Assembly (NCBI GenBank): GCA_016716525.1
Contig: JADJWE010000002.1
Coordinates: 579,951 to 643,950, forward strand
DNA: 64,000 nt
Direction: 5' to 3'
Origin: Candidatus Flexicrinis affinis
GTDB taxonomy: Bacteria > Chloroflexota > Anaerolineae > Aggregatilineales > Phototrophicaceae
Below the pieces are notes generated by a model. The model had not been told where the DNA came from. It ran no database searches and worked only from the letters and a program-made list of their open reading frames with translations. Of the stretch, positions 3,044-63,747 are shown piece by piece. Position numbers and translations under genes: made by a program. Numbering within the stretch: position 1 is the first letter of the stretch; every line of letters begins with the position of its first letter.

Positions 3044-4291
3044 TCACGCCGTCGGCAGCCAGATGTGCAGCAGGCCGGAGTCGGTGCCGACGGCCAGCGC
3101 GAGATGTCCGTCCGCGAGCGTAAGGGCTGCTAAATTGGTGCTGACCGTCCCGTCGACCGGCACGACCCATGCGATTTCGATGTCCTCGGGGCCGTCGCGG
3201 CGCAGGCCGGCCAGATTACGCCGTTCCTGATCGGGCAGCACCAATTCGACGCGCCCGTCTCCGTCGAAGTCTCCCGCCACCGCCATATCGAGGTTGTCGG
3301 AATACAGCACATGCGATGTGAACCCGCGCAGTTCGGCCACTACCGGAAACCCGTCGCCGTTGAGCCGGTTGAACTGGACCACCCCGCCGATGTGCGGCGT
3401 CAGCACCGACGCCAGTTCGATCACGCCGTCTTCGCTAAATGCTCCGGCCGCGAGCTGATGACGCCAGCGCCCGCCGCGACCAACCTGCGGGCCTTCCGCG
3501 ATCTGTTCGCCGGTGTCACCGGCATAGACGCGGATACGCGCGCCAGCCTCCTCGTCGGCCACCGTGGCAATGAGTTCCTCGGAACCGTTGCCATCCATGT
3601 CCGTCCACAGCGGTGTCAGGCCTTCAAACACCAGCCCGTCTTCCAGCGAGATACGGTACACCTCGGTCAACGTCTCGATATTGAATACGACCAGCGCCGT
3701 CGCCTCGACGGCATCGCCCAGCACGCCGTGGGCATAACGCGACGTCTGGCCGGCGTAGACGGCGGCACGGTCGCCACGCACGACGATTCGCGCGTCCGGT
3801 AGGGCGTCGAGCGACTCTCGCACGACCGTACCGCGCGCGGTGCGAACGACGTCACCGTTGTTGGCGACATATAGCAGCCCCTCGGGCAGTACGACCGGTA
3901 CCGACCGGACCGACGCATCGGCGGGCAGAGGTAGCAGTGCGAGGTCGCCGTCCGGGTCGATCATGCCGACCGGCGGCTGACCGGGCGCAAGCTGCCCGGC
4001 GGGATTGAGCCGGCCGTTGGCGTCGACGGCAAGCACGCGCCCGTCCTCAAGCGCCACCAGCCACGATGCGCGGCTGCGCGAGGGTGTCCCGACGACCCAC
4101 TTGGGCACGCCGTCAAGTTGAACGCTGAGGTAGACGGCATCCGGCATAGAGCCGACACCGGGGACAAATCGGCTGCCGGTGGGCTGATGATGAGGGATTG
4201 CGGCAAGCGGCATAGGTCGTTCCTCATGGGCGGCAGGCGCAATGGACGTTGTAAGAAGCAGCACTAAAGCAATTGTCCATCGCGGCATCAC
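3044..4291 (-). CDS. Secreted FG-GAP/VCBS-like repeat protein
   Basis: Signal peptide followed by repeated D-x-D-G-D/N-G motifs (DMDGNGSEELI, GDFDGDGRVELVL) characteristic of FG-GAP calcium-binding blades. Confidence 0.55.
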   Translation of the reverse strand: MMPRWTIALVLLLTTSIAPAAHEERPMPLAAIPHHQPTGSRFVPGVGSMPDAVYLSVQLDGVPKWVVGTPSRSRASWLVALEDGRVLAVDANGRLNPAGQLAPGQPPVGMIDPDGDLALLPLPADASVRSVPVVLPEGLLYVANNGDVVRTARGTVVRESLDALPDARIVVRGDRAAVYAGQTSRYAHGVLGDAVEATALVVFNIETLTEVYRISLEDGLVFEGLTPLWTDMDGNGSEELIATVADEEAGARIRVYAGDTGEQIAEGPQVGRGGRWRHQLAAGAFSEDGVIELASVLTPHIGGVVQFNRLNGDGFPVVAELRGFTSHVLYSDNLDMAVAGDFDGDGRVELVLPDQERRNLAGLRRDGPEDIEIAWVVPVDGTVSTNLAALTLADGHLALAVGTDSGLLHIWLPTA

Positions 4292-22618: not shown

Positions 22619-23770
22619 ACATCCCCCACCGGCACTTCGACCACGACACGCGTCCCCCGCCCGGGCGCAGACGTCAGCCGAAAACGCCCGCCAAGCAGAC
22701 CGGCGCGCTCGCGCATACCGGTCAGCCCATAACGATCCGACGGCGCTAGTTCGGGATCGAACCCGACACCATCGTCGGCGATCGACAGCTTGACCTTGCC
22801 GCGGCTCAGCGCAAGCGACAGTGATGGTCGACGCCTGCGCGTGGCGGGCGATGTTGGACAGCGCCTCTTGCATGATGCGGATGAAGCCGTTCTCGACGTG
22901 CGGCGGCAGGTCGATCGCGGTGAGCTGCAGTTCGACATCAAAGTTAAAGCGCCCGCCGTAATCACGCGCCAGCGTCGAAATCACGTCGGAGAGCGTTCGC
23001 CCGTCAAGCAGCGAAGCGCGCAGGTCCATGACCGACCGGCGGGTCTCGTCCAGCCCGTGCCGCACGCGGCCTAACGCCTGCTGCACGATCGAACGGACGC
23101 GCTCGCCGCCGTCGACCGACTCAAGGACGGCATCAGCGGTCTCGAGCTGGAGCGCGATCGACGTCAAGTCCTGCGCCAGCGTGTCATGGAATTCACGGGC
23201 GATCCGCACGCGCTCCTCGGCGGCGCCGGTTTCGGCACTGCGGCGGAACAGCCTCGCCCGTTCGATCGCCACGCCGAGCATGTCGGCGATGGTCGCCAGC
23301 AGGCGCAGTTCGTCGGCATTGAGCGCGCGCTCGTCGGCGCTGGTGACGTTGATCAGGCCGAGCTTCTTGCCGTGCGCGTCGATCGGCACGGTTGCGTGAT
23401 AGCGCAAGCCGTCGGTGCCGGTCATCGTGTCCTTCAGGCGCGAGCACTTGATCACGCTGATGTTCGACGCGCCGGACAGTTCGCCGGACTCGTAGTCGTC
23501 GATGCACGTACACCACGTGGTGCCCTTCATGCGGTGCGGATGGTCGGCCAGCGCCGGCGGCAGGTTCTGATGCACGGCGAGGCGCGCGTTTGCGCCGTCA
23601 TCGTCGGTCAGCCACACCCACCCGGTCTGCAGGTCCATCAACCGCACGACAAGGCTGAGCGTGGTACGCAAGGCGCGCTGCACGTCCAGCTCGGCGTTGA
23701 GCGCCTGCGCGATTTGATTCAATACGGAGAGTTCGGCGTTGCGCCGGGCGAGGTCAGCGGGCGTATTCAT
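22615..23770 (-). pseudogene. GAF-domain sensor histidine kinase (HisKA_3 H-box + HATPase_c), reading frame broken at about 22835 (as sequenced)
   Basis: The N-terminal GAF domain and H-box (REFHDTLAQDL) are in one frame. The HATPase_c domain ('KVKLSIADDGVGFDPE...GTRVVVEVPV') is in another. The switch is at 'atcactgtcgcttgcgctgagc'. Without it the kinase is full length and ATGA-coupled to the regulator. Confidence 0.75.
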
Positions 23771-23798
23771 GCCCTAAGTATACGCGATCTGAATCGCG

Positions 23799-24438
23799 CT
23801 ACCCGATCAGCACGACATGTACCTCGACGGGGCCGTGCGCACCCAGTATGAGTTCCTGTGCAATGTCGGCCGTGCGGCTTCCGCCGGTGATAAACACGAC
23901 GTTGGCGCTCTCGCGGAAGTGCGTCAATCCCGAGGCAGAGACCTGTTCGAACCACGCCTCGACATCCGGCAATATCTGATCGGCGCGAACCACCGCGATA
24001 TGCACCGGCGGCAGCAGTGATGCAAAGCGTGGTTTTCCCGGCCCGCTCGATACGACGAGGCTTCCCGTTCCGGCAAGTGCTGCCTCGACACCAGTCAGCC
24101 CGACGCGGGCCGACGGATCGCGCACGTCGGCGGGCGTAATCCCGCGCGCGTTGAGCGCCTGGCCAACCCTCCAGCGAAATCTGATCCGGATCCCGCGATG
24201 ACCTGTTTGTCATCCCCGATCACTCGAGCACCCGCCCAAGCGCCGCCTTGTCGTCAGCGCACGGCCACAGCGTCACGCCGACGCGTGCTGCCGCCGCCGA
24301 AAACGCGTCGCGGAGCGCATCCGGCGATGTGTCGGCCATCGGCACGACCCGCACCGGATCGGGGGTGGCAGGGATGTTCAGCGCCGGATTTGTTACCGCG
24401 CGCAGGCGTTTCAGGATGGATTCTCTGCTCGACATCAT
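23799..24438 (-). pseudogene. lutC: Lactate-utilisation protein C (LutC/YkgG family), two frame changes between 24125 and 24220 (as sequenced)
   Basis: The N-terminal 72 aa ('SRESILKRLRA...LGRVLE') and the C-terminal 108 aa ('...LVVSSGPGKPRF...VVRADQI...VVLIG') are LutC-like but lie in different frames. A third frame carries 'VIGDDKQVIAGSGSDF' in between. The breaks lie in gggg/ggg runs. Confidence 0.6.
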
Positions 24439-24444
24439 TGGATA

Positions 24445-24592
24445 CCCTCACCCCTAGCCCCTCTCCCTCAGGGAGAGGGGGATTCGACCGATCGGTCTGT
24501 CGCCATTGTCGGCGGGCGACCCGGCGGGTCGCCCCTACAGACTTGCGCGCCGCCGGTTCCTGACAACTGACACCTGATTCCTGACGTCTTCC
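24445..24592 (-). repeat. Composite intergenic repeat, copy 1 (modules M1+M2+M3)
   Basis: Read on the minus strand after the lutB stop: M1 'gtcaggaatcaggtgtcagttgtcagg'. Then M2 'tgtaggggcgacccgccgggtcgccc' (9-bp hairpin). Then M3 'cccctctccc tca gggagagggg' (perfect 10-bp hairpin), followed by 'ctaggggtgaggg'. These modules recur at six or more other sites. Confidence 0.7.
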
Positions 24593-24596
24593 CTCA

Positions 24597-25991
24597 TCAC
24601 TTCCCTCTTTCCGCCCAAAGTTGGCGGAAGGTCTTGGGCGCGAACGTGGGAAGGTCACGATATTTGGCCCACGCCCCGATCGGCCCCGGATGCCAGCGAC
24701 CCATGATCTTCTGGCCGACTCGCGCGGCCCATGCCGTAAGCCGGTAACTCCACGCTGTTCGCTGCGTGATCGACCACGCCCAGAGGCCGAATCCGTAGAG
24801 CTTGCTGCCGTGGCCGCGCACGGTCATGTCGTGGCGCAGGTCGAGCAGCATGCGCGGCAGGTCGATATCCACCGGACAGACCTGCTTGCACGCACCGCAC
24901 AGGCTGGATGCATACGGCAGCGGTTCGGCGTTCTCAAGCCCGACGTACAGCGGCGTCAGCACCGCCCCGATCGGCCCACCATACACCCATCCGTAGGCGC
25001 CGCCGCCTGTGGAACGATAGACAGGGCATGCGTTCTGGCACGATCCACAGCGGACGCAGCTTAACACCTCGGCGTATTTGGTCGCGTACACCTTGCTGCG
25101 GCCATTGTCGACGAGGACGACGTACACTGCTTCCGGCCCGTCGGGCTCGTCGGTCCGGCGCGGGCCGTTGATCATCGAGGTGTAGACTGCCATGTGTTGA
25201 CCGGTACCGGCACGCGGCAGAACCTGCGTAAGCAGCGCGTAGTCCTCGACGGTCTCGACCATCTTCTCGATACCGACCAGTGCGACATGCACCCGCGGCG
25301 CCGACGTACACAGGCGCCCGTTGCCCTCGTTGGTAACGAGCGTAACTGTGCCGGTTTCTGCAATGATGAAGTTACCGCCGCTGATGCCCATGTCGGCGTC
25401 GAGGTAGATCGGGCGCAGGCGTTGGCGGGCAAAAGCGACCATTTCGCCGGAGTTGTCGGTAAACGGCATGCCCAGCTTCTCGACCATCAGGTCGCGGATG
25501 CTCTCTTTGCTCTTGTGGATGATCGGCGCAACGATGTGGCTCGGGTGTTCGCCGCCGATCTGCACGATGTACTCGCCAAGATCGGTCTCGACCACGTCGA
25601 GGCCCGCGCCTTCCAACGCGCCGTTGAGCGCGATCTCCTCGCTCAGCATCGACTTGGACTTGACGATCCGCTTGACCTGATGCCGCGCCGCGATCTCCTG
25701 CACGTGGCGGCGGGCCTCAGCGGCATCCTCGGCCCAAAGCACGGTGATTCCGTTCTCTTTCATGCGCGCTTCGGCTTCTTCGAGCAGGTCCGGCAGCGAC
25801 TTGAGCGCGCGGCGTTTAGCGGCTGCAGCTTGCATGCGCAGCTTCTGGCCGTGCTCGTACCCGAACTGTGTGAACGCCGCCTGCCGGTTGTTGTAGGCAT
25901 TGCGCGTGCCGCGCCGGACGGCGGTCTGCTGGTCGGTGTTGCGGACGGCGATCGACGCCAGATCGACGAAGTTGTTGGACTCGATCTTCAT
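24597..25991 (-). CDS. lutB: Lactate-utilisation protein B (iron-sulfur, LUD domain)
   Basis: 464 aa with two CxxCxxC ferredoxin-type clusters (CVRCGSCQNACP, CGACKQVCP). It sits between lutA and lutC. Confidence 0.85.
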   Translation of the reverse strand: MKIESNNFVDLASIAVRNTDQQTAVRRGTRNAYNNRQAAFTQFGYEHGQKLRMQAAAAKRRALKSLPDLLEEAEARMKENGITVLWAEDAAEARRHVQEIAARHQVKRIVKSKSMLSEEIALNGALEGAGLDVVETDLGEYIVQIGGEHPSHIVAPIIHKSKESIRDLMVEKLGMPFTDNSGEMVAFARQRLRPIYLDADMGISGGNFIIAETGTVTLVTNEGNGRLCTSAPRVHVALVGIEKMVETVEDYALLTQVLPRAGTGQHMAVYTSMINGPRRTDEPDGPEAVYVVLVDNGRSKVYATKYAEVLSCVRCGSCQNACPVYRSTGGGAYGWVYGGPIGAVLTPLYVGLENAEPLPYASSLCGACKQVCPVDIDLPRMLLDLRHDMTVRGHGSKLYGFGLWAWSITQRTAWSYRLTAWAARVGQKIMGRWHPGPIGAWAKYRDLPTFAPKTFRQLWAERGK

Positions 25992-29820: not shown

Positions 29821-30741
29821 ATGGTACAGATCGGCATCATGATCGAGGGGCAGGACGGCCTGAATTGGGAACGCTGGACGCGCATCCTGCAAGCGGCGGA
29901 AGACCTCGGCTATGCGTTCGTATTCCGTTCCGACCACTTCGCATTCACCGACCCGCCGACTAAGGACTCACTCGAGCTGTGGGTGTCGCTGACGTACGCC
30001 GCGACTCTCACCAAGCGCATCGAGTTCGGGCCGATGGTGGCGCCGGTTACGTTCCGTCACCCGTCGATGACCGTACGTATGGGCGCGCAGGTCGACGATT
30101 TGAGCGGCGGGCGCTTGTCGTTGGGGCTGGGCGCGGGCTGGCACGAGGGCGAACACCGGATGTTCGGTGTGCCGTTCTACGACCGCGCCACGCGCTTCGA
30201 AATGTTCTCGGACGCGTTGGAGGTCACGCGACTGCTGTTGGACGGCGACGGACCGGCGACCTACCACGGCAAGCACTTCTCGCTCGAAAACGCCCTGCTG
30301 CTGCCCAAGCCCAAGCGCAAGACGCCGGTGCTGATCGGCGGCAATGGGCCGAACAAGACTCTGCCGCTGGTGGCGCGTTATGCCGACGAGTGGAACGGCG
30401 TGTTCATCAACCCGTCCACTTACCGCGAGCGGAACGCCCGCTTGAACGACCTGCTCGCCGAGCGCGGGCGGCCCGAAAGCGCGATCAAGCGGTCGATCAT
30501 GACCCGCGTCGAGTATGCGCGCGATGCGTCCGAGCTGGCAGCGCGCGTGAATGCCGCAGGGCGGAGCCAAGCCGAGCTGGTCGAGCACGGCCTGATTGTC
30601 GGCACCGCGTCGCAAATCGTCGACCAGATCGGCGCGTTTGCCGATGCCGGCGTGCAGCGGTTCATGCTGCAGTGGCTCGATCAGGACGACATCGACCGGC
30701 TTGAGCACATGGCGACCCACGTACTACCTCAACTGCACTAA
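29821..30741 (+). CDS. LLM-class (luciferase-like) flavin-dependent oxidoreductase, probably F420-dependent
   Basis: 306 aa beginning 'MVQIGIMIEGQDGLNWERW' with 'LSGGRLSLGLGAGW', typical of the F420-dependent LLM subgroup. Assignment of the cofactor is by inference. Confidence 0.7.
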   Translation: MVQIGIMIEGQDGLNWERWTRILQAAEDLGYAFVFRSDHFAFTDPPTKDSLELWVSLTYAATLTKRIEFGPMVAPVTFRHPSMTVRMGAQVDDLSGGRLSLGLGAGWHEGEHRMFGVPFYDRATRFEMFSDALEVTRLLLDGDGPATYHGKHFSLENALLLPKPKRKTPVLIGGNGPNKTLPLVARYADEWNGVFINPSTYRERNARLNDLLAERGRPESAIKRSIMTRVEYARDASELAARVNAAGRSQAELVEHGLIVGTASQIVDQIGAFADAGVQRFMLQWLDQDDIDRLEHMATHVLPQLH

Positions 30742-30745
30742 CCAA

Positions 30746-30772
30746 AGTGCCCCCTCAGGTCGAGGGGGCACT
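30746..30772. terminator. Bidirectional intrinsic-terminator-like hairpin between convergent genes
   Basis: agtgccccctc / aggtc / gagggggcact is a perfect 11-bp stem. It sits between the LLM stop (30741) and the YeaQ stop (30799). Confidence 0.5.
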
Positions 30773-30798: not shown

Positions 30799-31056
30799 CT
30801 ATGCGCGTCGCAGGAACCTGACTGCCGCGATCACGATAATCGCGCCGATAGTTGCCGTGACGATGTGTAAGACGCTCAGGCCGGTTGTCTCGAAATCGGT
30901 GCCGGTCAACAGGCCAATAACCCAGCCGCCGACGAAGCTGCCGACGATTCCGAGGATGATGTTCATAATGAGGCCCTGCGGGTTGCCCATGATCATGCCA
31001 GCAAGCCAACCAGCGATGGCGCCAACGACGATCCAAACGAGGATATTCACCAACAT
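30799..31056 (-). CDS. GlsB/YeaQ/YmgE-family (transglycosylase-associated) small membrane protein
   Basis: 85 aa with three TM helices and glycine-zipper motifs (GAIAGWLAG, GIVGSFVGGWVIG). Confidence 0.75.
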   Translation of the reverse strand: MLVNILVWIVVGAIAGWLAGMIMGNPQGLIMNIILGIVGSFVGGWVIGLLTGTDFETTGLSVLHIVTATIGAIIVIAAVRFLRRA

Positions 31057-31182: not shown

Positions 31183-31224
31183 CCCAAAACTGCATAGGCC
31201 CGTTCGTTTCTGAACGGGCCTATC
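31183..31224 (-). terminator. Intrinsic terminator of the nfeD-flotillin operon
   Basis: ataggcccgttc / gtttct / gaacgggcctat is a perfect 12-bp stem, followed on the minus strand by gcaguuuuggg. It lies 11 nt after the flotillin stop. Confidence 0.55.
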
Positions 31225-31234
31225 GTGCTCTGAA

Positions 31235-32767
31235 CTATGCCTCCGGCGCCGGATCGTCAGGGCGCAGCGGCGCGGGCGACGGCGTGAGGTTCGCGCCGGT
31301 TCCCGCCGTACGGATAGCGTTGAACATACCGGCGATGCGCAGCGCAGTCTGCTCGATGTCGTCCCCGCTGAGCGCCTCGACTTTGGCGCGCAGCACCTCG
31401 GCCGCTTCCGGGATGCCCATCAGGAAGTCCATGAACGTGCTGCCGGACCCACCGTTCGAGCCATTCCCGAAGTTGACCATCCGGACATTGTTACCCAGTC
31501 CGGCCAGTGCCTTCGAGATGGCCTCGGCCTTGGCGATCTCTGCATGCGTCACCTGCTCGATCAAGAACTGGCGCAGGTTGATCTCGCCTTCCGCGCTGCT
31601 GGCAGCGGCCAGTTCGCGCCGGCCCTCGGCTTCGGCGAGCAGCTTGGCCTTGTCGCCTTCCGCCTCGGCCAGCTTATGGGCCTGAACGGCTTCTGCTTGC
31701 GCCTTCTGACCGGCAGCCTCGGCCTCTTTCATGGCACGAAGCGCGTCGGCTTCGGCACGGCTGCGATCCTGCGTGGCCTTCGCTTCGGCCTCAGCGCGGA
31801 TGCGCGTAGCTTCCGCGGTTGCCTGTGCGCCGATGCGGGTCGCCTCGGCATTGGCTGTCGCCTCGATCGTCGCTTTCTGACGCGCAGCCTCGGCCTCGAT
31901 CTCGGTCGCCTGCCGCTTGGCGCGCGCCGGGACCAGCACTTCGGCTTCCTGCTGCTGCTCGACCGCGAGCGCCTTCTGCTTCTGCACTTCCTGCTCGGAC
32001 GCGGCGTTTGCCAAGCCGACGCGCTTCTGCACTTCGACCTCGCGGATGTTCAACGCCTCGCGCTGGGCGAGAATTTCGCGCAGCGAGTCCAGCTCCGCCT
32101 GCTCCGCCGTCCGGCGGGCGTCGGCGGATTTGACGCGGGCCTCGCGCTCGGCCTCCGCTTCCGCGATCTGCGCATCGCGCTTGATCGCCGCGATCTGCGG
32201 AGCGGCCATCGCCGTCAGATAGCCTTGATCGTCCGTGATCTCCTCGATGCCCATCGACAGCATCTTAATGCCCATCGCGGCCATGTCGTCACGGGCGAGG
32301 TCCTGCACCTTCTGCACGAACGAGTCGCGGTCGCGGTGAATCTCCTCGACGCTGAGCTGGCCGACGATCGCGCGGAAGTTGGCACTCAGCGTCTCGGCGA
32401 TGATCTGCCGCACCTCCTCGCGCGTCTTATCGAGGAACGCCCGCGCAGCCGTGCGCAGCGCGGTCTCCTCGGGGTCGATCTGCACCTGCGCGACCCAGTC
32501 GAGCTTGATCGGCACGCCGCGCTCGGTGTAGACCTCGTCCTTTTCCTGCTTGATGGTAATGATCGTAATGTCCAGTTTCTTGTACGTCTCGAGCAGCGGG
32601 ACGACGAACACGCCGCCGTTGGTAATCATGCGCGCGTTCTGGCGGCCGTAGACCACCATGACCTCGCTGGGTGGAACGCGGTGGTACTGACGCGTGATCA
32701 AGGTGATCAACGCGATGACGACCACCAGTACGACTGCACCGACAATCAACAGACCAGAACCTTCCAT
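31235..32767 (-). CDS. Flotillin-family SPFH/band-7 protein
   Basis: N-terminal TM segment, an SPFH domain, then a long Ala/Glu/Gln-rich coiled-coil (flotillin repeat region). It is paired with an NfeD gene. Probable start is MEGSGLL at 32767. Confidence 0.8.
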   Translation of the reverse strand: MEGSGLLIVGAVVLVVVIALITLITRQYHRVPPSEVMVVYGRQNARMITNGGVFVVPLLETYKKLDITIITIKQEKDEVYTERGVPIKLDWVAQVQIDPEETALRTAARAFLDKTREEVRQIIAETLSANFRAIVGQLSVEEIHRDRDSFVQKVQDLARDDMAAMGIKMLSMGIEEITDDQGYLTAMAAPQIAAIKRDAQIAEAEAEREARVKSADARRTAEQAELDSLREILAQREALNIREVEVQKRVGLANAASEQEVQKQKALAVEQQQEAEVLVPARAKRQATEIEAEAARQKATIEATANAEATRIGAQATAEATRIRAEAEAKATQDRSRAEADALRAMKEAEAAGQKAQAEAVQAHKLAEAEGDKAKLLAEAEGRRELAAASSAEGEINLRQFLIEQVTHAEIAKAEAISKALAGLGNNVRMVNFGNGSNGGSGSTFMDFLMGIPEAAEVLRAKVEALSGDDIEQTALRIAGMFNAIRTAGTGANLTPSPAPLRPDDPAPEA

Positions 32768-32894
32768 CGCACCCCTCCTACCGTCCCTGTGCCACACGGC
32801 ACCGATTAACGAAATGTGGTTTGCAGCGAACCCGTACCCCTGCGTCTCCAGCGATGGGAACCTGCCGACCTATTCGACAGTATTGCGCGTCGTC

Positions 32895-32975
32895 TAGCCC
32901 GGGCGACCCGGCAGGTCACCCCTACACATCAGCGATAGGCGTGACTGACAACTGTCTACTGACTCCTGAACCTGC
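32895..32975 (-). repeat. Composite intergenic repeat, copy 2 (modules M1+M2), inserted between nfeD and the flotillin gene
   Basis: Minus-strand reading after the nfeD stop: 'gttcaggagtcagtagacagttgtcagtc' (M1), then 'tgtaggggtgacctgccgggtcgcccgggc' (M2). Confidence 0.65.
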
Positions 32976-32977
32976 CC

Positions 32978-33487
32978 TTACCCATTCTTCTTCTTCACAT
33001 ACAGCAGCCCGCTTTCGACATTGACGACTTCGACGATGTCGCCGCGATGCAGCGCCACGCCGTTGACCTCTTTCACGGCCGAGCGCGTGACGAACGCACC
33101 GCTCTCGATCATCGCCTCGCCGGTCTTGCCGGGGGCGCTCTCGATGGTGACGCGCGCACTCATACCGATCAGCTCGCGCTGGACCGGGATACTGTCGGTC
33201 GTCTGCTGGCGCATCACCCACCGCAGCACGAAGATCGCGGCCTTGCCGATCGTGTAACCGAACACCGCTGCCACAAGGACAGTGACCAGCACCGACCACC
33301 CTGACGACGTGCCGAGCAAGCCCATTGCCCCGAAACCGGAGCAGAACGCCGCGATCAGCAGGAGCGTGAAATCGCCGTCCCCGCCGTCGCCCGAATCGGT
33401 GACGTCGCCGAAGAAGATGCTGAAGACGAAATAACCGGTGCCGACCAGCATGAAAGCACCGAACACCCACGGAAGGATGCCGCTCAT
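32978..33487 (-). CDS. NfeD-family membrane protein (flotillin partner)
   Basis: 169 aa with N-terminal TM helices and a C-terminal beta-barrel-like soluble part. It sits upstream of the flotillin gene on the same strand. Confidence 0.7.
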   Translation of the reverse strand: MSGILPWVFGAFMLVGTGYFVFSIFFGDVTDSGDGGDGDFTLLLIAAFCSGFGAMGLLGTSSGWSVLVTVLVAAVFGYTIGKAAIFVLRWVMRQQTTDSIPVQRELIGMSARVTIESAPGKTGEAMIESGAFVTRSAVKEVNGVALHRGDIVEVVNVESGLLYVKKKNG

Positions 33488-53912: not shown

Positions 53913-54020
53913 ACCGGATTACTGTTAGGACCGGCGCGGAAGCCTGTCAGGTTCCGGTTAGCGACTGGCTGTCGTTCTATACTCGTGCGGATGTGTCCGG
54001 CCCTACCGGGAGGCCCGCCG

Positions 54021-55782
54021 ATGTTCCGCGCCCTGACCCTGATTGTCTGTATCGCACTGCTGGCAGCGACCGGCGCTGCTGCACAGGATAGCCCGTACCT
54101 GACCGGCACCTTGACGACCGTGGACGTCGGCGGCGTCGAGCGTCAGTACGTGCTGTTCGCGCCGGATGACCTGCCCGCCGATGCGCCCCTTGTCGTCGTA
54201 TTGCACGGCCGATTCCAGTCGGCTCGGTCGATCGAGGCGTTCACGCACCTAAATGCCGCCGCGCAAGAAAACGGCTGGATCGTCGCGTACCCGAACGCCG
54301 TCAACGGCAGTTGGGAGGACGGCGGGCGCGAGTCCGGCCTGCCGCGCACTGGCGATCCGGTCGATGACGTCGGGTTCTTCGACGCGGTCGTCGCCGACGT
54401 GACCGCTACCCACAGCACCGGTTCGATCAACGCGGCAGCCTTCGACACCGGCGGCACCCTGCTCCAGCGCATCCTGTGCGAAGCTGAGACCGAACTCGAC
54501 ACGGCGATGCTGGTCGCGTCGGTGGTGTGGTCGCACACGCTGGAACGCTGCGCCGAGGCGCGGATCGATACGCGCATGCTGCTCGTGTTCGGCGCGCTCG
54601 ACTCGATTTACGAGCCGCTGGGCACGACCTTCGACACCCTGCCCCGCCCGGACGGCACGCCCAACCGCCGCGGCGGCTTTGACGAGACGGCCAAGTTCTG
54701 GGCGTCACGCGCGGGCTGCGACCCGGACTCGACGCAGACCGGTCAGTCGGTCGTGTTCGAAGGCTGCCCGATCGACGGCCAAGTGACGGCGATGCTGCTG
54801 CCGAGCGCCGGGCACGAATGGCCGCGCTCCGGCGACTACGCGATCACCGGCGGGTTCAACCCACTGCACGACGGCGTAACCTTGCTCGGTGAACTGCTGG
54901 CGGGCCGCCTGCCGGTCGATCCGGTCGATCCGCCCGACGTGCTCGTGCCGCCGCGCACATTCATCGCCTACGTGCCGACAGCCTACACCGCCGACGCGCC
55001 GCTGCCCGTGGTCGTCGCGCTGCACGGCCGGCCCGACACCGGTGCCGGATTCGCCGCCATCACCGCCATGACGCCGATTGCCGAAGAAGAAGGCTTCATC
55101 GCCGTGTTCCCCGACGGCGTCGACAACCAGTGGAACTACCTCGAAGGCGTGACGGGCGAAACGCCGTACAACTATGTGAGCGACGTGCGCTTCCTCGACC
55201 GGCTGATCGACGACCTCGCCGTCGACCTCAACATCGACGCGGCACGCGTGTACCTGACCGGCTTCAGCAACGGCGGATTCATGACCTACCGGATGGCCTG
55301 CGAGCCAACCGTCAACCGCTTTGCCGCGTTCGCCGTGGCCGGCGCGCTGATGTACCCCGAGTTTCAACCGCCGTGCCTTGTCAGTCCGCCGCGCCCGATG
55401 CTGATCGAGCACGGCACCGAGGACATCAGCATTTCGTGGGACGGCATCACGCACATGCCCGCCCCCCGGCCACCTCGCCGTGACGCTTAACGTGCTGCAA
55501 TCGGTGAGCTTCTGGGCCTCGCGCAACGGGTGCGATCCGACCCTGACCGAGCGATTCGAGTATCCGCGGGCGGACGAGCTGACGGCCGTCATCCGCTTCG
55601 ACTTCGTGGAGTGCGCGGGCGCGCCGGTGACGTTCTACGCCGTGATGGGTGGTGGGCACGGTTGGCCGGGCGTGGATGTCGTGCCGGAGCGCATCGCCGG
55701 GAACAACACGCACGACATCCACCTCACCCACGAAATCTGGGACTTCTTCAAGGATCAGCGCTTGGTGGAGAGTGGTCAGTAG
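54021..55782 (+). pseudogene. Secreted tandem-domain esterase (PHB-depolymerase/LpqC-like alpha/beta-hydrolase, duplicated), with a frame break at about 55465 (as sequenced)
   Basis: Signal peptide (MFRALTLIVCIALLAATGAAAQ) and two homologous halves ('VVVLHGRFQS...' and 'VVVALHGRPDT...GFSNGGFMTY'). The last ~100 aa are in the 55480..55782 frame. The break is in a C6 run ('gcccgCCCCCCggcc'). Confidence 0.6.
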
Positions 55783-56216
55783 GCAGGAGTCAGGTGTAAG
55801 TACCCGACCTCACCCCGCGTCGCTGCGCCCTCTCGAACGAACCTCACCCCAAACCCCTTTCCGCCTCGGAGAGGGGCTTTCAAATCCGGCGTGTGTTTCT
55901 CCCCTCTCCTCGGGAGAGGGGCCGGGGGTGAGGTCTGTTCTGGCCGGGGGTGTCGTTACGCTTGGCGCACCGACCGCCTACTCGTAGGGACGCGATATAT
56001 CGCGTCCGGTGGCGGCGGGCCGATCGCGTTCGCGGACGCCATGTATGGCGTCCCTACCACACCGTGCTTATTCCGCTGCTGAGATCACTCCGCCACGCTG
56101 CGCTCCGCTATCCCTCGCCCTGAGGGGGACGGGCGTTCGTGTCCGGCGCGAGTCGTTCTCCCCTCTCCAGTTGGAGAGAGGTCGGGGGTGAGGTCTGCTT
56201 TGGGCGACGTACTTAC
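55783..56216 (+). repeat. Composite intergenic repeat, copy 3: a 430-bp MITE-like array of hairpin modules filling a convergent intergenic region
   Basis: Starts 1 nt after the esterase stop with M1 'gcaggagtcaggtgtaagtacc'. Contains three M3 hairpins (55854..55876, 55901..55937, 56160..56197), the last two each followed by 'cgggggtgaggtctg'. A 73-nt nested palindrome spans 55985..56057 (ggacgcgata|tatcgcgtcc and ggacgccat-gt-atggcgtcc, framed by gtaggg...ccctac). Imperfect terminal inverted repeats share GTAAGTAC and GACCTCACCCC (55796..55816 vs 56184..56216). Confidence 0.7.
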
Positions 56217-56221
56217 CATTT

Positions 56222-57499
56222 CTACGGCGTCGACGTCGCTGTAGCCACCATGCACGGCCAGGTCCCATACGTCGGACAGTCCTGAACGAGTGGCTCGCCC
56301 GGGGGATCCTCGGCCCAACTGTACCCATGTCCCGGGTACGCAAGGTTGAAAAACGAAATGGCGTCATTGCTACCGGCCAGCCGATCCACATAGAACGCAA
56401 GACCCAATTCCGGGTACGCGATCACGATAAGATCTGGAGTCGCCGCTTTCGCGGTGTCATGTATCGTTGCGACTGGCGGTGAACCGAATACTTCAACGAC
56501 GACGTCTACGGTTGTATCGAGGCGGCCATTCAATTGGTCGACCATGCCTGACACGATGTGTACGTCGATCGCTGAATCTGAGAATAGGAGTGGCAAGTCA
56601 GGGGCGTACCACTGAATCTGACCAGGCAGAACATAGTACTGGATACTCGCGCTTACGAGAGAATCGACTAACTCCTGCTCGGTCGTGACATTCGGCTGGA
56701 TGCCGAGAAAACAGTTTCGCTGACAGTCCGGCCCGCTGAACAGGTTCAGCAGCGCCTGCCCTTCGGTTGAGAGCGACTGTTCGTCCATGTCGGCAGATGT
56801 AGAAACGGCGGTCGGCGTCGCCGTCGGCGCGATACATGGGGCCACATCGTATGTTGCGCACTCTTGGGTCACTGGTGTGCCGGGGGGATGACTTGGCATA
56901 CCGACTCGGTTCTCAGGCTCAGTCAGAAACAAATAACTAGCTCTTTGGGTGTTCTGTGTTGCGTCTACAAAAAACAGTAGGCCCAAGTCTGGATACCCAA
57001 CTAAGTACATGGGGAATTGATACGTTACGACCTCTGGCGCACCGAAAACCTGCAGGATTGCGCTCACGCGGACACCTATCGGAGCGGCAACTTGAATCAC
57101 GGTGCGTTGATCATCTTCTCCGACGGTAATAGTAAATCCGAATGGATCGACTCCATCGTTGACCCCCGCGATCAGCTCAGGTTCCCAGTAAATCACGCCA
57201 TACTCAAAGTGGTATGCTGTGTTGCTCTGTTCGAGGGATGACACAATCTCCGTCGCGGTAGTAACCCCGGGCTCGAGTCCCATATAGCACAGTGGCGAAC
57301 ATTCGCCTGCGAATAGACTGTTGAGGATTTTCACTTCAGATTGCGAATCGAAAGCCGATTGCCCGCCGCCGCCAGTGGGTGTTGGCGTCGTCACGGGCGT
57401 GGATGGCACGGTCGGCTGGGCTTTTGACAGGCCGAGCAGCACAATGCCGAACAAGGTAACTAACAGGCATCTAGACAAGAGGTTCATTGAACATGTCAC
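56222..57499 (-). CDS. Hypothetical secreted protein with an internal tandem duplication, in a low-G+C islet
   Basis: Signal peptide and a Thr/Pro linker. Two ~170-aa repeats ('LNSLFAGECSPLCYMGLEPGVTTATEIVSSLEQ...' and 'LLNLFSGPDCQRNCFLGIQPNVTTEQELVDSLVSAS...'), each with conserved Cys pairs. I recognise no family. Confidence 0.5.
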   Translation of the reverse strand: MTCSMNLLSRCLLVTLFGIVLLGLSKAQPTVPSTPVTTPTPTGGGGQSAFDSQSEVKILNSLFAGECSPLCYMGLEPGVTTATEIVSSLEQSNTAYHFEYGVIYWEPELIAGVNDGVDPFGFTITVGEDDQRTVIQVAAPIGVRVSAILQVFGAPEVVTYQFPMYLVGYPDLGLLFFVDATQNTQRASYLFLTEPENRVGMPSHPPGTPVTQECATYDVAPCIAPTATPTAVSTSADMDEQSLSTEGQALLNLFSGPDCQRNCFLGIQPNVTTEQELVDSLVSASIQYYVLPGQIQWYAPDLPLLFSDSAIDVHIVSGMVDQLNGRLDTTVDVVVEVFGSPPVATIHDTAKAATPDLIVIAYPELGLAFYVDRLAGSNDAISFFNLAYPGHGYSWAEDPPGEPLVQDCPTYGTWPCMVATATSTP

Positions 57500-57681
57500 C
57501 GATCCAATCCGACAACAGCCCGTTCAATGGACGCTGGCGTGGAGATGATGCGGGTCAATCACCCGAAGCGTAACGCCGGATAACCATACCCGGCCAGTAC
57601 CGTTGGCATGGCGTCGGGATGCCGGTAGTCAGGAGTTGCCGCGCGTGGTCTGTGTCGCAATAACCCCTTCCGTCCGTCGCC

Positions 57682-58868
57682 TCACGCCGGCGCGCCGCGG
57701 AACCGGCCCGCCCTTGACGCCAGCGCGATCGCCGCGACCGCCAAGACCATCAGCAGCGTATACGCGCTCTGCATGCCGAACGCGTCGGACAGGCCGCCGA
57801 AGACCTGTACCGTGCTGATCACGGACAGCGACGCGATCATCCCGAAGCGCGCGCTGGCCCGGTTCGCCGCCGGCCCCGCCACCTGCATCCCGCTCGAGAC
57901 GCTCAACGGGCCGAGGTTGCCAACTCCCAGCCCCATCAGGAACAATCCGGCGATGTTCAGCGCGGGGTGTGTGCCCAGCCAGTACAGCGGAAACGTCATC
58001 AGCACCCATACGAAGGCCAGCAGCAGCACGCGCGAGTCGGGCATGACATCCAGCAAGCCGCCCGATGATGCGGCCGAGCGATCGCCACCGCGAACACGCG
58101 CGCTCATCACCGACGCCGACGTGCTCCGGGTCGAGCTTCACGACCGTCGAGAAATACGTCGCGCCCAAGCCGGAGATGAGGTTTTCGATGCCGATGGCGA
58201 GAAACGCGAGGACCGCAAAGAACCAGAATGCGGCCGGAAGCGGCACGACTCGTGCGCGGCGCGCCGTCGCCGACGTTTCGGCCGGCGCTGTCGCCGGCGC
58301 CGGGATCGCCAACCCGGCGAACAGCATCCGGTACAGCCCGACGGCAGCCAGCGGAATGAGCGGAATGGCTTGCCAGCCCAACGGCGAGCGCGCGATCATC
58401 CCCGCCAAAATCGGCCCGGCGATCATCGGCAGGCCGGCGATGATGTTGGCCTCGGCATACGCTTGGCCGCATGTGGGCCGGCAGCGACCGATATGGCCGT
58501 TGGCGACCATGAAGACCGAGCCGATCGCACAACCGAACACGAACATCGACGCGATTCGTCACCGGCAGCGATCCGCCGAACGCCACGCCCAAAAGGCCGA
58601 TCCCGACCATCACCGCCGCGACCCACACCATCCGGTCGCTGCCCACGCGCGCGACGATTCTATCCGCGACCAGGCTGACGATGATGATGCCGACCGACGA
58701 GACCGTGAAGTGATAGCTGATCTCGGTGAACGTCAGGTTCAGTTTCGCGCCGAGGAACGGCATAGTCGGCCCGATGAGTGAGATCCGGAGGCCAAAGAAC
58801 GCAAGAAAATGCGTAGCTGAACCATGTTGTCGCGTCCGGACGAAGGCGGCAGCGGGTTCGTTAACCAT
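57682..58868 (-). pseudogene. MFS transporter with at least two frame breaks (as sequenced)
   Basis: Three consecutive frames (58868..~58560, ~58546..~58100, ~58100..57682) each carry contiguous MFS-like TM sequence. The rest of each track ORF is Arg/Ala-rich noise. Confidence 0.65.
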
Positions 58869-58939: not shown

Positions 58940-59000
58940 GACGAAGGGGCGACCGCACGGCCGCCCCCGTAAAACCTACCCCTCCTCGGTGGAGGAAGTA
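58940..59000 (-). repeat. Degenerate relative of the composite intergenic repeat (M2-like + M3-like)
   Basis: 'ggggcgaccgcacggccgcccc' is followed by '..cctacccctcctcggtggaggaag'. It lies between the SBP stop (59083) and the MFS start (58868). Confidence 0.35.
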
Positions 59001-60174: not shown

Positions 60175-60963
60175 TTGTCGATTTCCACCCGCGATCTACT
60201 TGTCACAGGACTGGTGTCGGCGCTGTTGATCATTGTCACGCTCGCCGGCCTGAGCCTCGTGCCGGCGTCGACATGGGACGCGATGCGCCCGGCCACGTGC
60301 CTGCCGACGGCATGTTTCTGCGAAGCGCCGCTGACGACCGAGTCGATCCGTCAACCGGTCAACGCGGTGTCGTCGCTGGCGTACGTCATCCCCGGCGCGT
60401 GGATGCTGGTGACCGCCGGACAGGTCGCGGTTGGCGTGATCTTCGGCACCGGCCACCGTATCATGATGGGCCTGAGCGCAATCGTAATCGGCGTTGGGAG
60501 CGCGTTCTACCACGGCTCGCTGACGTTCGTGGGGCCAGTTTTTCGACATCCTCGGCATGTATCTGTTCGCCGCCCTGCTCCTGATCTACGCCCTGCAGCG
60601 GCTGTACCGTTGGTCGTTCACGACGACTGCGCTGATCAGTGGTCTTCAACCTCACGCTGACGATCCGTACAGATCGGCGTGCCGGACACGCGCCGGTACG
60701 TGTTCGGGATCGTGCTGGCGCTCGCGCTGCTGGCCGAGGCGGTGGTGTGGCAGGTGCTGCGGCCAACGCGGAGCTACGCATGGTTTTGGGCCGGCATCGG
60801 CGCGTTCGCCGTCGCCATGGTGATCTGGGTGCTCGATCTGACCGGCACGGTGTGCGACCCGACTTCGGTGATTCAGGGCCACGCGGTGTGGCACGTGCTT
60901 GGTGCGGTGGCGGTCTTCTGCACGTGGATGTGGCATCACAGCGAGCCAGCGCCTGCACCCTAG
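60175..60963 (+). pseudogene. Alkaline-ceramidase-family (ACER-like) 7TM hydrolase homologue, with two compensating frame breaks (as sequenced)
   Basis: Family hallmarks in order: 'CEAPLTTESIRQPVNAVSSLAYV' (C-E...P-N..S..Y), 'SAFYHGSLTFVGQFFDILGMY' (S..YH...GQ..D) and 'QGHAVWHVLGA' (H..WH). The middle segment (60540..~60650) is in the +1 frame because of an extra g in 'gtGGGGcc'. The frame returns before 60679. Confidence 0.55.
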
Positions 60964-61078
60964 CGACTGTTCAGATTCTGTATACGTCTCTAAATGCAGC
61001 ACAAACCTTTTTCACACCTCGCAGTGCATCAGGTCGTCGTACACTGATTGCAGTCGAACGTGGACTGAGAACGCTGTC

Positions 61079-61327
61079 ATGGCATCGCGGCTGAACCCTG
61101 TACAAATGCTGTCCCTGATCGGGCACACTGCGCCGGCGAAGTTCGAGCTGACGTACGGCCGCGAGGCGCGGCTGGTGTTTTACGTCCGGGAGCGGCATGC
61201 AAGAGGTTGCGACTTCCGATCTGAGACTGTTGCGGACGTGCGTGAGGCCGTCCAGCATATGGGCTATCGCCAGATTGACGAGTGGCGGCGCAAAGGCGAA
61301 GGCGGCTACGTCTTCGTACGGGGATAG
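61079..61327 (+). CDS. Hypothetical small protein (about 83 aa)
   Basis: The track ORF begins at 60899, but the upstream part is AT-rich and non-coding-like. Met at 61079 gives 'MASRLNPVQMLSLIGHTAPAKFELTYGREARLVFYV...'. No family is recognised. It is followed immediately by a repeat copy. Confidence 0.35.
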   Translation: MASRLNPVQMLSLIGHTAPAKFELTYGREARLVFYVRERHARGCDFRSETVADVREAVQHMGYRQIDEWRRKGEGGYVFVRG

Positions 61328-61339
61328 GTGGAAGTCGCC

Positions 61340-61440
61340 AGCTGTCCGGAGTCAGGTGTCAGTAACCGCGGACTAGCGTAGGTAATCGACGTCGTAGCGC
61401 AGGGTCGCGGAAGCCCACTTCGGCCATCCCCTACCCGGAC
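61340..61440 (+). repeat. Composite intergenic repeat, copy 4 (M1 + divergent tail)
   Basis: M1 'ccggagtcaggtgtcagtaacc' begins 13 nt after the upstream stop (61327). The tail contains '..cgtaggtaatcgacgtcgtagcg..' and 'cccctacc'. Confidence 0.55.
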
Positions 61441-62847: not shown

Positions 62848-62956
62848 GGAGTTTCCAGTTTTCAGACATCAGTTGTCAGTCTTTTATTGCCGCAACGTGG
62901 ATAGCCAATCGTCACTCGATCGCCCTTGGAAACTGACATCTGACACCTGATCACTT
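62848..62956 (-). repeat. Composite intergenic repeat, copy 5 (M1 plus an inverted partial M1)
   Basis: Minus-strand reading 4 nt after the ATPase stop gives 'gtgatcaggtgtcagatgtcagtttcc' ... then 'aagactgacaactgatgtctgaaaactggaaactcc'. The two ends are imperfect inverted repeats of each other. Confidence 0.55.
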
Positions 62957-62958
62957 CG

Positions 62959-63747
62959 CTATTCGTCAAAGGTGTGTGCATCACGCAGGAGCTCGCGCAC
63001 TTCGGTGACCAGTTCGAAATAGCGCGGCTGCTCGCGGGTTTCAAACGTGCGCGGGTACGGCAGATCGACATCCAATACCGCCGTGATGCGGCCCGGACGC
63101 GGCGACATCACCACCACCCGGCTGCTCAAGAACACGGCTTCGGCGATGCTGTGCGTGACGAAGATGACAGTCGTCTGTGTGGCCTGCCAGATACGCAGCA
63201 GTTCGAGGTTCATGCGCTCGCGCGTGAACTCGTCCAGTGCGCCGAACGGCTCGTCCATCAACAGCAGCGCCGGCTGAAATGCCAGCGCGCGCGCGATCGC
63301 CACGCCGCTGCATGCCGCCTGAAAGCTGCCACGGGTAATGCTTCGCGAACTTGCCCAGTTCGACCAGTTCGAGCATTTCGGCGGCGCGCTCTCGCGCTCC
63401 GGTTTGTCGATGCCCATGATCTCAAGCGGAAGCTGCACGTTCTTGCCGACTGTGCGCCAGTCGTACAGGGTCGCCGCCTGAAACACCATGCCGTAGTCGC
63501 GGTCGAGGCGGGCCTGGTGCGGCGTTTTGCCGTTGATCACCAGCTCGCCACTGCTGGGCTGCAGCAGGTCGGCGATCAAGCGCAGCAGCGTCGACTTGCC
63601 GCAGCCCGACGGGCCGATCAGCGACACGAACTCGCCGCGCTTGACATCGAGCTGGATGTCTTTGAGCGCAACGACTGGATCGGCGTTCTTGACGGCGAAG
63701 ATCTTGTTGACGCCTTGGGCGCGGATTACTGCGGGTGTCTCAGTCAT
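62959..63747 (-). pseudogene. ABC transporter ATP-binding protein, NitT/TauT (SsuB-like) family, with two compensating frame breaks (as sequenced)
   Basis: Walker A 'GPSGCGKST' and Q-loop, then frame B carries 'LSGGMQRR' (63041..63376 frame), then frame A resumes with 'VAIARALAFQPALLLMDEPFGALD...H-loop'. The start ATG at 63747 overlaps the upstream permease stop (ATGA). Confidence 0.75.

Follow-up and report, generated by a model that had tools for sequence, protein, structure and literature searches.

The window analysed here, a stretch of 64,000 nucleotides from Candidatus Flexicrinis affinis (contig JADJWE010000002.1, positions 579,951 to 643,950), contains three types of short repeat, referred to as M1, M2 and M3, in five gene spacers. 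The original prediction had treated these as modules of one composite and novel family. As it claimed, the repeats are real, intergenic, hairpin-rich and unannotated, and all three modules occur far above chance. However, judged by sequence, the supposed family is probably three unrelated and previously described kinds of intergenic repeat that share gene spacers, real but largely ordinary: a heptanucleotide simple-sequence repeat (M1), a GTAG-tagged repetitive extragenic palindrome (REP; M2) and a G/C-rich intrastrand-triplex motif (M3). The window has a G+C content of about 63% and no tRNA features. LutB and its neighbours place it in the Chloroflexota, where the best named relatives belong to Anaerolineae, Anaerolineales and Aggregatilineales; metagenomic proteins match its LutB at 95, 90 and 89% identity.

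The identities of the flanking genes rest on a Pfam scan of approximately 64 open reading frames (ORFs) in the window. Site 1 is the lutB-lutC spacer of a lutA-lutB-lutC cluster, and site 2 lies between nfeD and a Band_7 gene. The TAG at 32895 is no real gene's stop, and the true downstream neighbour at this site is the Band_7 gene at 31235-32797 on the minus strand. Site 3 separates a split esterase gene from a convergent gene (56222-57499, minus strand), site 4 follows an ORF at 60899-61327, and site 5 lies between genes for an ABC ATPase and a permease. Three of the five sites (lutB-lutC, nfeD-Band_7 and ABC ATPase-permease) are thus flanked by co-directional genes of one operon, and the genes next to M1 arrays share no common function. 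The window contains eight perfect hairpins with a stem of at least 9 bp, five of them inside the noted sites.

The M1 pattern TCAGGTGTCAGTTGTCAG, with up to three mismatches, has seven matches in the window where 0.02 are expected. M1 takes the form of TCAG-NNN in a 7-nt register, with three to four imperfect units, and occurs at six places. The array in the lutB-lutC spacer (TCAGGAA TCAGGTG TCAGTTG TCAGGAA, four units; 24557-24584, minus strand) begins 12 nt past the lutB TGA (24597-24599), and that in the nfeD-Band_7 spacer (GCAGGTT TCAGGAG TCAGTAG ACAGTTG TCAGTCA; 32942-32976, minus strand) begins 2 nt past the nfeD stop (32978-32980). The first unit of the plus-strand array at site 3 (TCAGTAG GCAGGAG TCAGGTG TAAGTAC; 55776-55803) includes the stop TAG of the esterase ORF (55780-55782), a distance of 0 nt; this array belongs to repeat family D18. 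At site 4, a plus-strand array (TCCGGAG TCAGGTG TCAGTAA; 61345-61365) begins 17 nt past the TAG (61325-61327) of ORF 60899-61327, and neither M2 nor M3 can be recognised convincingly behind it. The array at site 5 (TCAGGTG TCAGATG TCAG; 62933-62950, minus strand) starts 8 nt past the TAG of the ABC ATPase gene (62959-62961). All five of these arrays therefore stand after a stop in the orientation of the upstream gene, as had been predicted, at distances of 0-17 nt (1-15 nt in the prediction).

Site 5 (62848-62956), which had also been listed as always following gene orientation, in fact holds two opposed M1 arrays. The sixth array of the window lies here, CTGA-first before a start: at 62855-62879 on the plus strand it reads CTGACAACTGATGTCTGAAAACTGG on the sense (minus) strand, with its end 13 nt before the permease ATG (62846). 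In the predicted fold, an intercistronic hairpin (-34.6 kcal/mol, z = -2.3 for 62855-62950) has the array after the ATPase stop as its 5' arm and this inverted array as its 3' arm. The segment 55783-56221 is also much more stably folded than shuffled sequences are (z = -6.3), but the site 4 array (61345-61365) has a z-score of +0.4, and M1 alone shows no excess structure. Two further copies that had been proposed were not borne out. The supposed degenerate copy at 58940-59000 consists of two unrelated imperfect hairpins, with GTAG tag and M1 both absent, and the trace near 57590-57620 is a single TCAGGAG heptamer at chance level.

The lutB-lutC spacer could be compared across relatives. M1 has four units in the window, five in L127, whose LutB is 90% identical, and 227 nt, or about 32 units, in L121 of the L121-L126 group (89% identical), where Tandem Repeats Finder (TRF) reports periods of 7/21/63 with scores of 270-312. 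In L128, whose LutB is 95% identical, M1 is absent and the neighbouring gene is different. Five independent contigs break inside the L121-type array, and gene prediction in L121 yielded a spurious 90-aa ORF there. In the nfeD-Band_7 spacers of relatives (76-84% identity), which are 25-60 nt long and have a normal ribosome-binding site, no array is present, and such heptamer arrays are absent from about 330 kb of related loci. The end of lutB and the first bases beyond it show another 7-nt periodicity (GTGATGA / TGAGTCC TGAGTGA TGAGTGG), found at 11392-11421 of L121 (TRF: period 7, 4.3 copies), at 1600-1625 of L128 and at 24591-24603 (minus strand) of the window. This periodicity may be the seed of the TCAG array.

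Similar arrays extend well beyond the Chloroflexota. We scanned one genome per species (596 Gb) for the exact 18-mer TCAGGTGTCAGNTGTCAG, which has 17 fixed bases, and found it within heptamer arrays of 21-189 nt in at least 120 cellular loci. About 70 matches are expected by chance in 596 Gb, which makes the raw count uninformative; the extension into arrays is what is informative. Among the matches listed, the phyla include Desulfobacterota, Acidobacteriota, Planctomycetota, Chloroflexota, Cyanobacteria, Bacteroidota, Gemmatimonadota, Verrucomicrobiota, Actinomycetota and others. The same pattern occurs in 78 viral contigs.

A dispersed element recurs in metagenome-assembled genomes (MAGs) of the Desulfobacterota/Syntrophobacterales (L012, L033, L053, L084, L101 and L107). 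Its left flank (…atcaaatcccaa.caccaaa.cccaggg…) and its loop of about 18 nt (aaaaagaaacatagaaa) are conserved, the loop standing between a TCAGGTG arm and a CTGAAAC arm, and the whole has the appearance of a genuine multi-copy hairpin element whose arms are made of heptamers. Contigs with a related variant of this element have about 900x coverage in one MAG. On an Acidobacteriaceae contig (L018), a match to the Acido-Lenti-1 RNA (RF01687) at 874-919 on the minus strand scores 38.1 bits against a gathering score of 37. It directly follows a 190-nt TCAGG(T/C)G array that starts 5 nt past a stop codon. When the window itself was compared with Rfam, as the original prediction had suggested, there were no matches at gathering score, and permissive searches returned sub-threshold miRNA-like hairpins and a weak Whalefall-1 look-alike.

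Because of the 7-nt register, the expansion at the orthologous locus and the cross-phylum arrays, we classify M1 from its sequence as a heptanucleotide simple-sequence repeat (SSR) with the unit TCAG-NNN, mostly TCAGGTG or TCAGTTG. Heptamer SSRs have several precedents. Rehm et al. 2015 (PMC4692102) described GGGAATC repeats in Xanthomonas and GGGGA(C/T)T repeats in Nostoc, with the G-rich strand near the 5' neighbouring ORF: after stops, where overlap with the stop is frequent, this is the coding strand, and before starts it is the non-coding one. Repeat length varied between Xanthomonas species and a function was not found. MacGregor 2015 (PMC4679880) described TAACTGA repeats in Beggiatoaceae, Cyanobacteria and Bacteroidetes, mostly a few nucleotides upstream of starts without a ribosome-binding site. 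A Nostoc preprint reported modest reporter effects of other heptamer repeats, and heptamer long simple-sequence repeats of Mrazek 2007 are cited in PMC4679880 or PMC4692102.

The window arrays resemble the repeats of PMC4692102 and PMC4679880 in their tandem 7-nt units (about three to four), intergenic location, variation in length and sequence between close strains, stop/start geometry, inverted pairs and lack of any tie to gene function. The reverse complement of TAACTGA, TCAGTTA, is one base off the window unit TCAGTTG. They differ in the unit (TCAGGTG/TCAGTTG), in the Chloroflexota host and in being more degenerate. Two other identities for M1 were considered and rejected. As a CsrA-binding site, its first unit, CAGGA(G/A), resembles CsrB repeats, but the cross-phylum arrays read CAGGUG and lack GGA. 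As a G-quadruplex, it offers at most GG doublets in the window units, and only three per array.

M2 was found at 24514-24538 and 32901-32925, where 0.01 matches are expected in the window. The first copy is GTAG-GGGCGACCC-GCC-GGGTCGCCC on the minus strand, with a perfect 9-bp stem and a 3-nt loop, and the second, also on the minus strand, is an imperfect version, GTAG-GGGTGACC-TGCC-GGGTCGCCC. Two hairpins of the same kind at site 3 had been overlooked in the original listing: GTAG-GGACGCGATATATCGCGTCC, with a 9-bp stem, at 55984-56007 on the plus strand, and GTAG-GGACGCCATACATGGCGTCC at 56034-56057 on the minus strand. These are the left and right halves of an inverted, REPIN-like doublet with the tags outside, and they pair in the predicted fold. 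Stems are perfect (9 bp, with loops of 2-3 nt) at 24514, 55988 (55988-56007) and 56034 (56034-56053), and GTAG stands directly at one end of all four GC-rich 9-bp-stem hairpins (GTAG-GGGCGACCC…, -GGGTGACC…, -GGACGCGAT… and -GGACGCCAT…).

By these features M2 belongs to the GTAG-tagged REP palindromes, which were known from Chloroflexi before: Di Nocera et al. 2013 (PMC3733652) reported GTAG REPs there among other phyla, with termini that often adjoin or supply stop codons. The original REP-type reading therefore stands for M2, whereas M1 and M3 fall into other classes. The window hairpins share with known GTAG REPs and REPINs (PMC3733652; Nunvar 2010, PMC2817692; Bertels and Rainey 2011, PMC3116915) a palindrome of about 25 nt with a 9-bp GC-rich stem and a 2-4 nt loop, the GTAG at one end, the occurrence as single copies and as an inverted doublet, and an intergenic location near or inside operons. 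They are unlike them in that the stems GGGCGACCC, GGACGCGAT and GGACGCCAT have not been assigned to a named family, and in that no REP-associated tyrosine transposase (RAYT) was seen within the 64 kb.

Relatives carry REPs of this sort as well. The orthologous M2 in L127 has two non-compensatory stem changes, which in this single case point to the decay of a selfish element more than to an RNA hairpin under conservation. In the relatives L130 and L132, GTAGGGGC-type REPs with other stems are present in clusters, and no plausible small ORF for a RAYT was seen near the L130 cluster. In L147, whose Band_7 protein is 77% identical, an independent GTAG REP with the stem GTAGGGGCGCAGCGCGCTGTGCCC lies at 3245-3268. 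It occupies the same nfeD-Band_7 spacer that holds M1 and M2 in the window, and this spacer has thus been hit repeatedly.

M3 is perfect at 24458-24480 and 55901-55921, where no matches are expected in the window, and degenerate at 55842-55876 and 56160-56193. It consists of a pyrimidine arm and a purine arm separated by a loop, then a linker of 2-5 nt and a G/T/A tail in mirror symmetry to the purine arm. In the lutB-lutC spacer, M3 reads CCCCTCTCC-CTG-AGGGAGAGGGG-CTA-GGGGTGAGG (24446-24480, minus strand), with 8 nt between its G-tail and the lutC ATG downstream. At site 3, the degenerate minus-strand copy at 55842-55876 (plus-strand reading CCTCACCCC-AAA-CCCCTTTCC-GCCTC-GGAGAGGGG) forms an inverted pair with the plus-strand copy CCCCTCTCC-TCG-GGAGAGGGG-CC-GGGGGTGAGG at 55901-55933 (repeat families D19 and I9). 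A third plus-strand copy, CCCCTCTCC-AGTT-GGAGAGAGG-TC-GGGGGTGAGG (56160-56193; family D19), starts with CCTCACCCCC when read on the minus strand, 28 nt past the stop of the convergent gene 56222-57499. The mirrored tail, with A-to-T allowed, follows the purine-motif triad rule (G*G·C, A*A·T, T*A·T), and CCCCTCTCC / GGAGAGGGG / GGGGTGAGG, as read from the sequence, satisfies nine of nine triads.

On the strength of this architecture, M3 is the known G/C-rich intrastrand-triplex motif (PIT/TMECO), with the triplex in the window a prediction. In a blastn comparison, about 90% of its length aligned at 88% identity with Escherichia coli sequence, at a median of six unannotated places in 4,477 of 5,426 genomes. 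PIT (Hoyne et al. 2000, as cited in the later study) and TMECO (Holder et al. 2015, PMC4666352, where it is related to E. coli BoxC) are almost identical to M3 in sequence and architecture. The TMECO consensus is CCCTCNCCC-N3-6-GGGNGAGGG-N3-GGGNGAGGG, and the window M3 matches both this and the published table (PMC4666352); E. coli copy 17 is CCCTCTCCCTGAGGGAGAGGGTTAGGGTGAGGGG and the window copy is CCCTCTCCCTGAGGGAGAGGGGCTAGGGGTGAGGG. Both are intergenic and multi-copy, often in inverted pairs with variable loops, at loci that vary between relatives; PMC4666352 associates the motif with locally variable loci. A triplex formed in vitro for E. coli copies and was not detected in vivo (PMC4666352). 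The differences lie in the host phylum and in one window tail that doubles as the lutC ribosome-binding region.

A stem scan of viral contigs recovered at least 154 M3 copies in at least 120 loci of 32-74% G+C. Among the matches listed, the one-sided tail GGGGTGAGG lies 2-5 nt from the stem in 119 of 154 copies, conservation ends at about 35 nt and the loops are free. Pyrimidine/purine hairpins with other stems carry a mirror tail of their own stem in 38 of 145 cases; shuffled tails gave 10 on average and at most 18. One viral contig (L193, IMGVR_UViG_3300008255_004712) has about 12 variant triplex motifs with the stem TCCCCTCCT/AGGAGGGGA and the tail AGGGGAGGT or AGGGGTGGT. It also holds the consensus type, giving two co-existing families in each of which stem and tail are matched.

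The viral copies also have a preferred orientation. Among the matches listed for L160-L279, an opposite-strand gene end faces the G-tail in 44 of 101 assessable copies and the arrangement is reversed in 12; the sense-strand order in the 44 is stop, CCTCACCCC, hairpin. This preference relative to stop codons is not reported in the E. coli study. In lutC, the G-tail coincides with the Shine-Dalgarno region, and the segment CTAGGGGTGAGGGTATCCAAT is kept in L127 and variant in L121. We considered whether the tail is a mobile Shine-Dalgarno sequence in general and rejected this for all but lutC: only 17 of the 101 viral copies lie 2-19 nt before a start, and 44 face a stop. Text searches of the literature with the M1 and M3 strings returned only unrelated primers.

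That the three modules make up one non-autonomous mobile element, a transposable element of the miniature inverted-repeat type (MITE) or a REP-type element that targets positions just past stops in a fixed orientation, seems to us scarcely credible. Such an element would account for the restriction of M2 and M3 to M1-initial spacers in the window and for the same order and orientation of both M1-M2 copies, and in one viral contig (L277) a TCAG array is directly followed by an M3 copy. Several observations speak against it. The M1-M2 spacers of the two copies are non-homologous (GAACCGGCGGCGCGCAAGTC and TCACGCCTATCGCTGATG), M1 stands alone at three sites, and orthologous spacers gain and lose modules independently, one at a time: L127 has another hairpin in place of that of M3 while M1 and M2 stay, and in L121 M1 is about eightfold longer and M2 is missing. 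The MITE reading finds no shared terminal inverted repeats or target-site duplications among the five sites.

M1 and M3 rarely meet elsewhere. Among the matches listed, a TCAG array lies within 150 nt of 2 of 154 viral M3 copies, only three M3-like sites occur in 1.47 Mb of loci selected for M1, and M3 occurs by itself in E. coli. M2 and M3 are both absent from the first 128 loci examined. The segment 55783-56221 is itself a mosaic of an M3 inverted pair, the REP doublet and a third M3. It resembles the bacterial interspersed mosaic elements of enterobacteria as a highly structured, alternating-orientation palindromic mosaic between convergent genes, but combines GTAG REPs with triplex motifs, two unit types that are unrelated, where the enterobacterial elements have REP variants and defined linker motifs. 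GC-rich, stable hairpins shortly past stops, and strong structure between convergent genes at this site, would also suit transcription terminators or attenuators that mark gene 3' ends. We regard that role as very unlikely: on neither strand is any M2 or M3 hairpin followed by a T-run, none of the five sites looks like a terminator, three of them lie between genes of one operon, M1 alone is unstructured, and earlier work cited in PMC4666352 found neither promoter nor terminator activity for PIT/TMECO.

The polarity of M1 bears on a different alternative. We counted array edges within 30 nt of a gene end, with ORFs of at least 120 aa as gene proxies, for 203 arrays in cellular loci and 137 in viral loci; all counts that follow are among the matches listed. 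After stops, the TCAG orientation outnumbers the CTGA orientation by 52 to 21 in cellular loci (p = 4e-4), and this rule was not replicated in viral contigs (40 versus 56). Before starts, the CTGA orientation prevails by 41 to 5 in cellular loci (p = 4e-8) and by 44 to 15 in viral loci, or 85 to 20 when pooled. Inverted array pairs are ordered TCAG…CTGA in 36 cases against 1 in cellular loci and in 14 against 0 in viral loci, or 50:1 together. The after-stop polarity claimed originally holds for the window and the cellular sample but was not reproduced in viral contigs, and the arrays are found just as often CTGA-first shortly before starts, as one is in the window. Inverted pairs in L001-L120 and L280-L357 (e.g. 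L012, L053, L084, L007, L021 and L103) almost always consist of a TCAG array, a loop and a CTGA array on either strand, and the CTGA arm is often another variant (CCTGAAA), which leaves one mismatch per 7 nt.

Selection on M1 arrays as cis-acting RNA elements, in place of neutral slippage, could explain these orientations. The arrays would couple or tune translation through an intercistronic hairpin, and a lone CTGA array would serve as an unstructured leader, free of a Shine-Dalgarno sequence, with stops in all three frames. The excess of CTGA arrays upstream of starts, the order of the inverted pairs and the TCAG-orientation 5' edge that adjoins ORFs within a few nucleotides all agree with this, as do the ABC ATPase-permease spacer, which has exactly such an architecture, the recurrence of one unit in many phyla among the matches listed, and the proposal that TAACTGA repeats are translational elements (PMC4679880). 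Several observations lead us to consider it unlikely. At one locus, array length across close relatives is 4, 5, more than 30 or 0 units, and arrays are missing from orthologous spacers and from the related genomes surveyed. Flanking genes have no function in common, the viral contigs do not show the after-stop bias, and the pair arms contain periodic mismatches that are neither wobble nor compensated. The gene calls behind the polarity counts are, moreover, ORF proxies.

A bolder form of this idea is that TCAG-core arrays are a cross-phylum mRNA punctuation, (UCAGGUG)n after stops and (CACCUGA)n before starts, that pairs across the intercistronic gap. If so, a conserved factor or the ribosome would read the arrays, coupling or insulating the translation of neighbouring genes. 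The recurrence of the 85:20 and 50:1 orientation rules in many phyla is consistent with it, but hypervariability between close relatives argues against an essential role, and we find the idea improbable. M1 polarity follows the general geometry reported earlier for bacterial heptamer repeats. The TCAGGTG spread across Desulfobacterota, Acidobacteriota, Planctomycetota, Chloroflexota and others, the 50:1 pair order and the orientation of the triplex motif relative to stops are, for these samples and ORF proxies, new with respect to the literature we searched.

A number of points weigh against the reading of three independent, ordinary repeat kinds. The orientation rules (85:20 and 50:1) suggest selection beyond purely neutral slippage. 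At a score of 30, TRF does not call the window M1 arrays, which are too short and imperfect, and two pairs of M1 are alike beyond the heptamers (repeat families D16 and D18), which leaves room for a copying-type dispersal of M1. The absence of a RAYT or IS200-like transposase that the original prediction noted was confirmed, with no Y1_Tnp match among the approximately 64 window ORFs scanned against Pfam. Every M2 and M3 of the window is in a spacer that begins with M1, and both M2 copies have the same orientation after it, a stronger association than independence alone predicts. We put this down to a few long spacers having gathered the repeats, though an insertion preference may have contributed.

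Under the three-kinds reading, which we nevertheless favour, M1 would arise and change length locally by slipped-strand mispairing and not be transposed as a unit; the length change is seen directly at the lutB-lutC locus. M2 and the two additional hairpins at site 3 presumably owe their spread to a RAYT-type HUH/Y1 transposase that acts in trans and whose gene lies elsewhere in the genome. The polarity of M1 could stem from selection against its stop-free, GUG/AGGUG-containing orientation just before starts. The forward strand of M1 is free of stops and contains GTG and AGGTG, and its reverse complement, CTGACAACTGACACCTGA, has TGA in all three frames; the G-rich orientation would be tolerated after stops and the CTGA orientation before starts. 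A Rho (rut-site) cause of the polarity was set aside because the same geometry is reported in Nostoc and, to our knowledge, cyanobacteria lack Rho.

The repeats at the three operon sites are probably transcribed in polycistronic mRNA. The stable hairpins (M2, M3 and the pair of opposed M1 arrays at 62855-62950) could retard mRNA decay in the 3'-to-5' direction or mask the ribosome-binding site that follows, and the repeats would make these spacers evolve quickly. Any such RNA-level effects of M1-M3 are most likely incidental and local.

The claim of novelty does not survive these comparisons: each module falls in a described class (heptamer SSRs, PMC4692102 and PMC4679880; GTAG REPs, PMC3733652; PIT/TMECO, PMC4666352), and the window adds no new kind of element. 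For annotation, the spacers are best labelled as three separate repeat classes and not as a new composite element. Arrays of this type break short-read assemblies and yield spurious ORFs. More broadly, the analysis showed a Chloroflexota genome with a triplex motif closely like the multi-copy E. coli sites, a mirror tail that co-varies with its stem across diverse contigs, and a single heptamer unit that recurs with fixed polarity across many phyla. All three classes, known for 10-25 years, still lack an established function, and genomes with all three in operons are possible test cases.

Some of the genes around the repeats are disrupted. lutC (23767-24438, minus strand) is broken: it matches the LutC of L121 for about 70 residues, then has compensating frameshifts and an in-frame TGA near 24222, and its later part goes out of frame again. 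It is either a pseudogene or the product of assembly indel errors. The esterase gene consists of two overlapping plus-strand ORFs (53985-55490 and 55480-55782), a major facilitator superfamily (MFS) transporter gene is seemingly split (57629-58546 and 58107-58868, minus strand), and clean ORFs are rare across 55.8-62 kb, which together suggest frameshifts or sequencing indels in that part of the window.

Two further perfect palindromes are unrelated to M1-M3. One, AGTGCCCCCTC-AGGTC-GAGGGGGCACT (30746-30772), lies between convergent genes at 29821-30741 (plus strand) and 30799-31056 (minus strand), and the other, ATAGGCCCGTTC-GTTTCT-GAACGGGCCTAT (31194-31223), is directly past the Band_7 stop. 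Both may be ordinary terminator-like hairpins.

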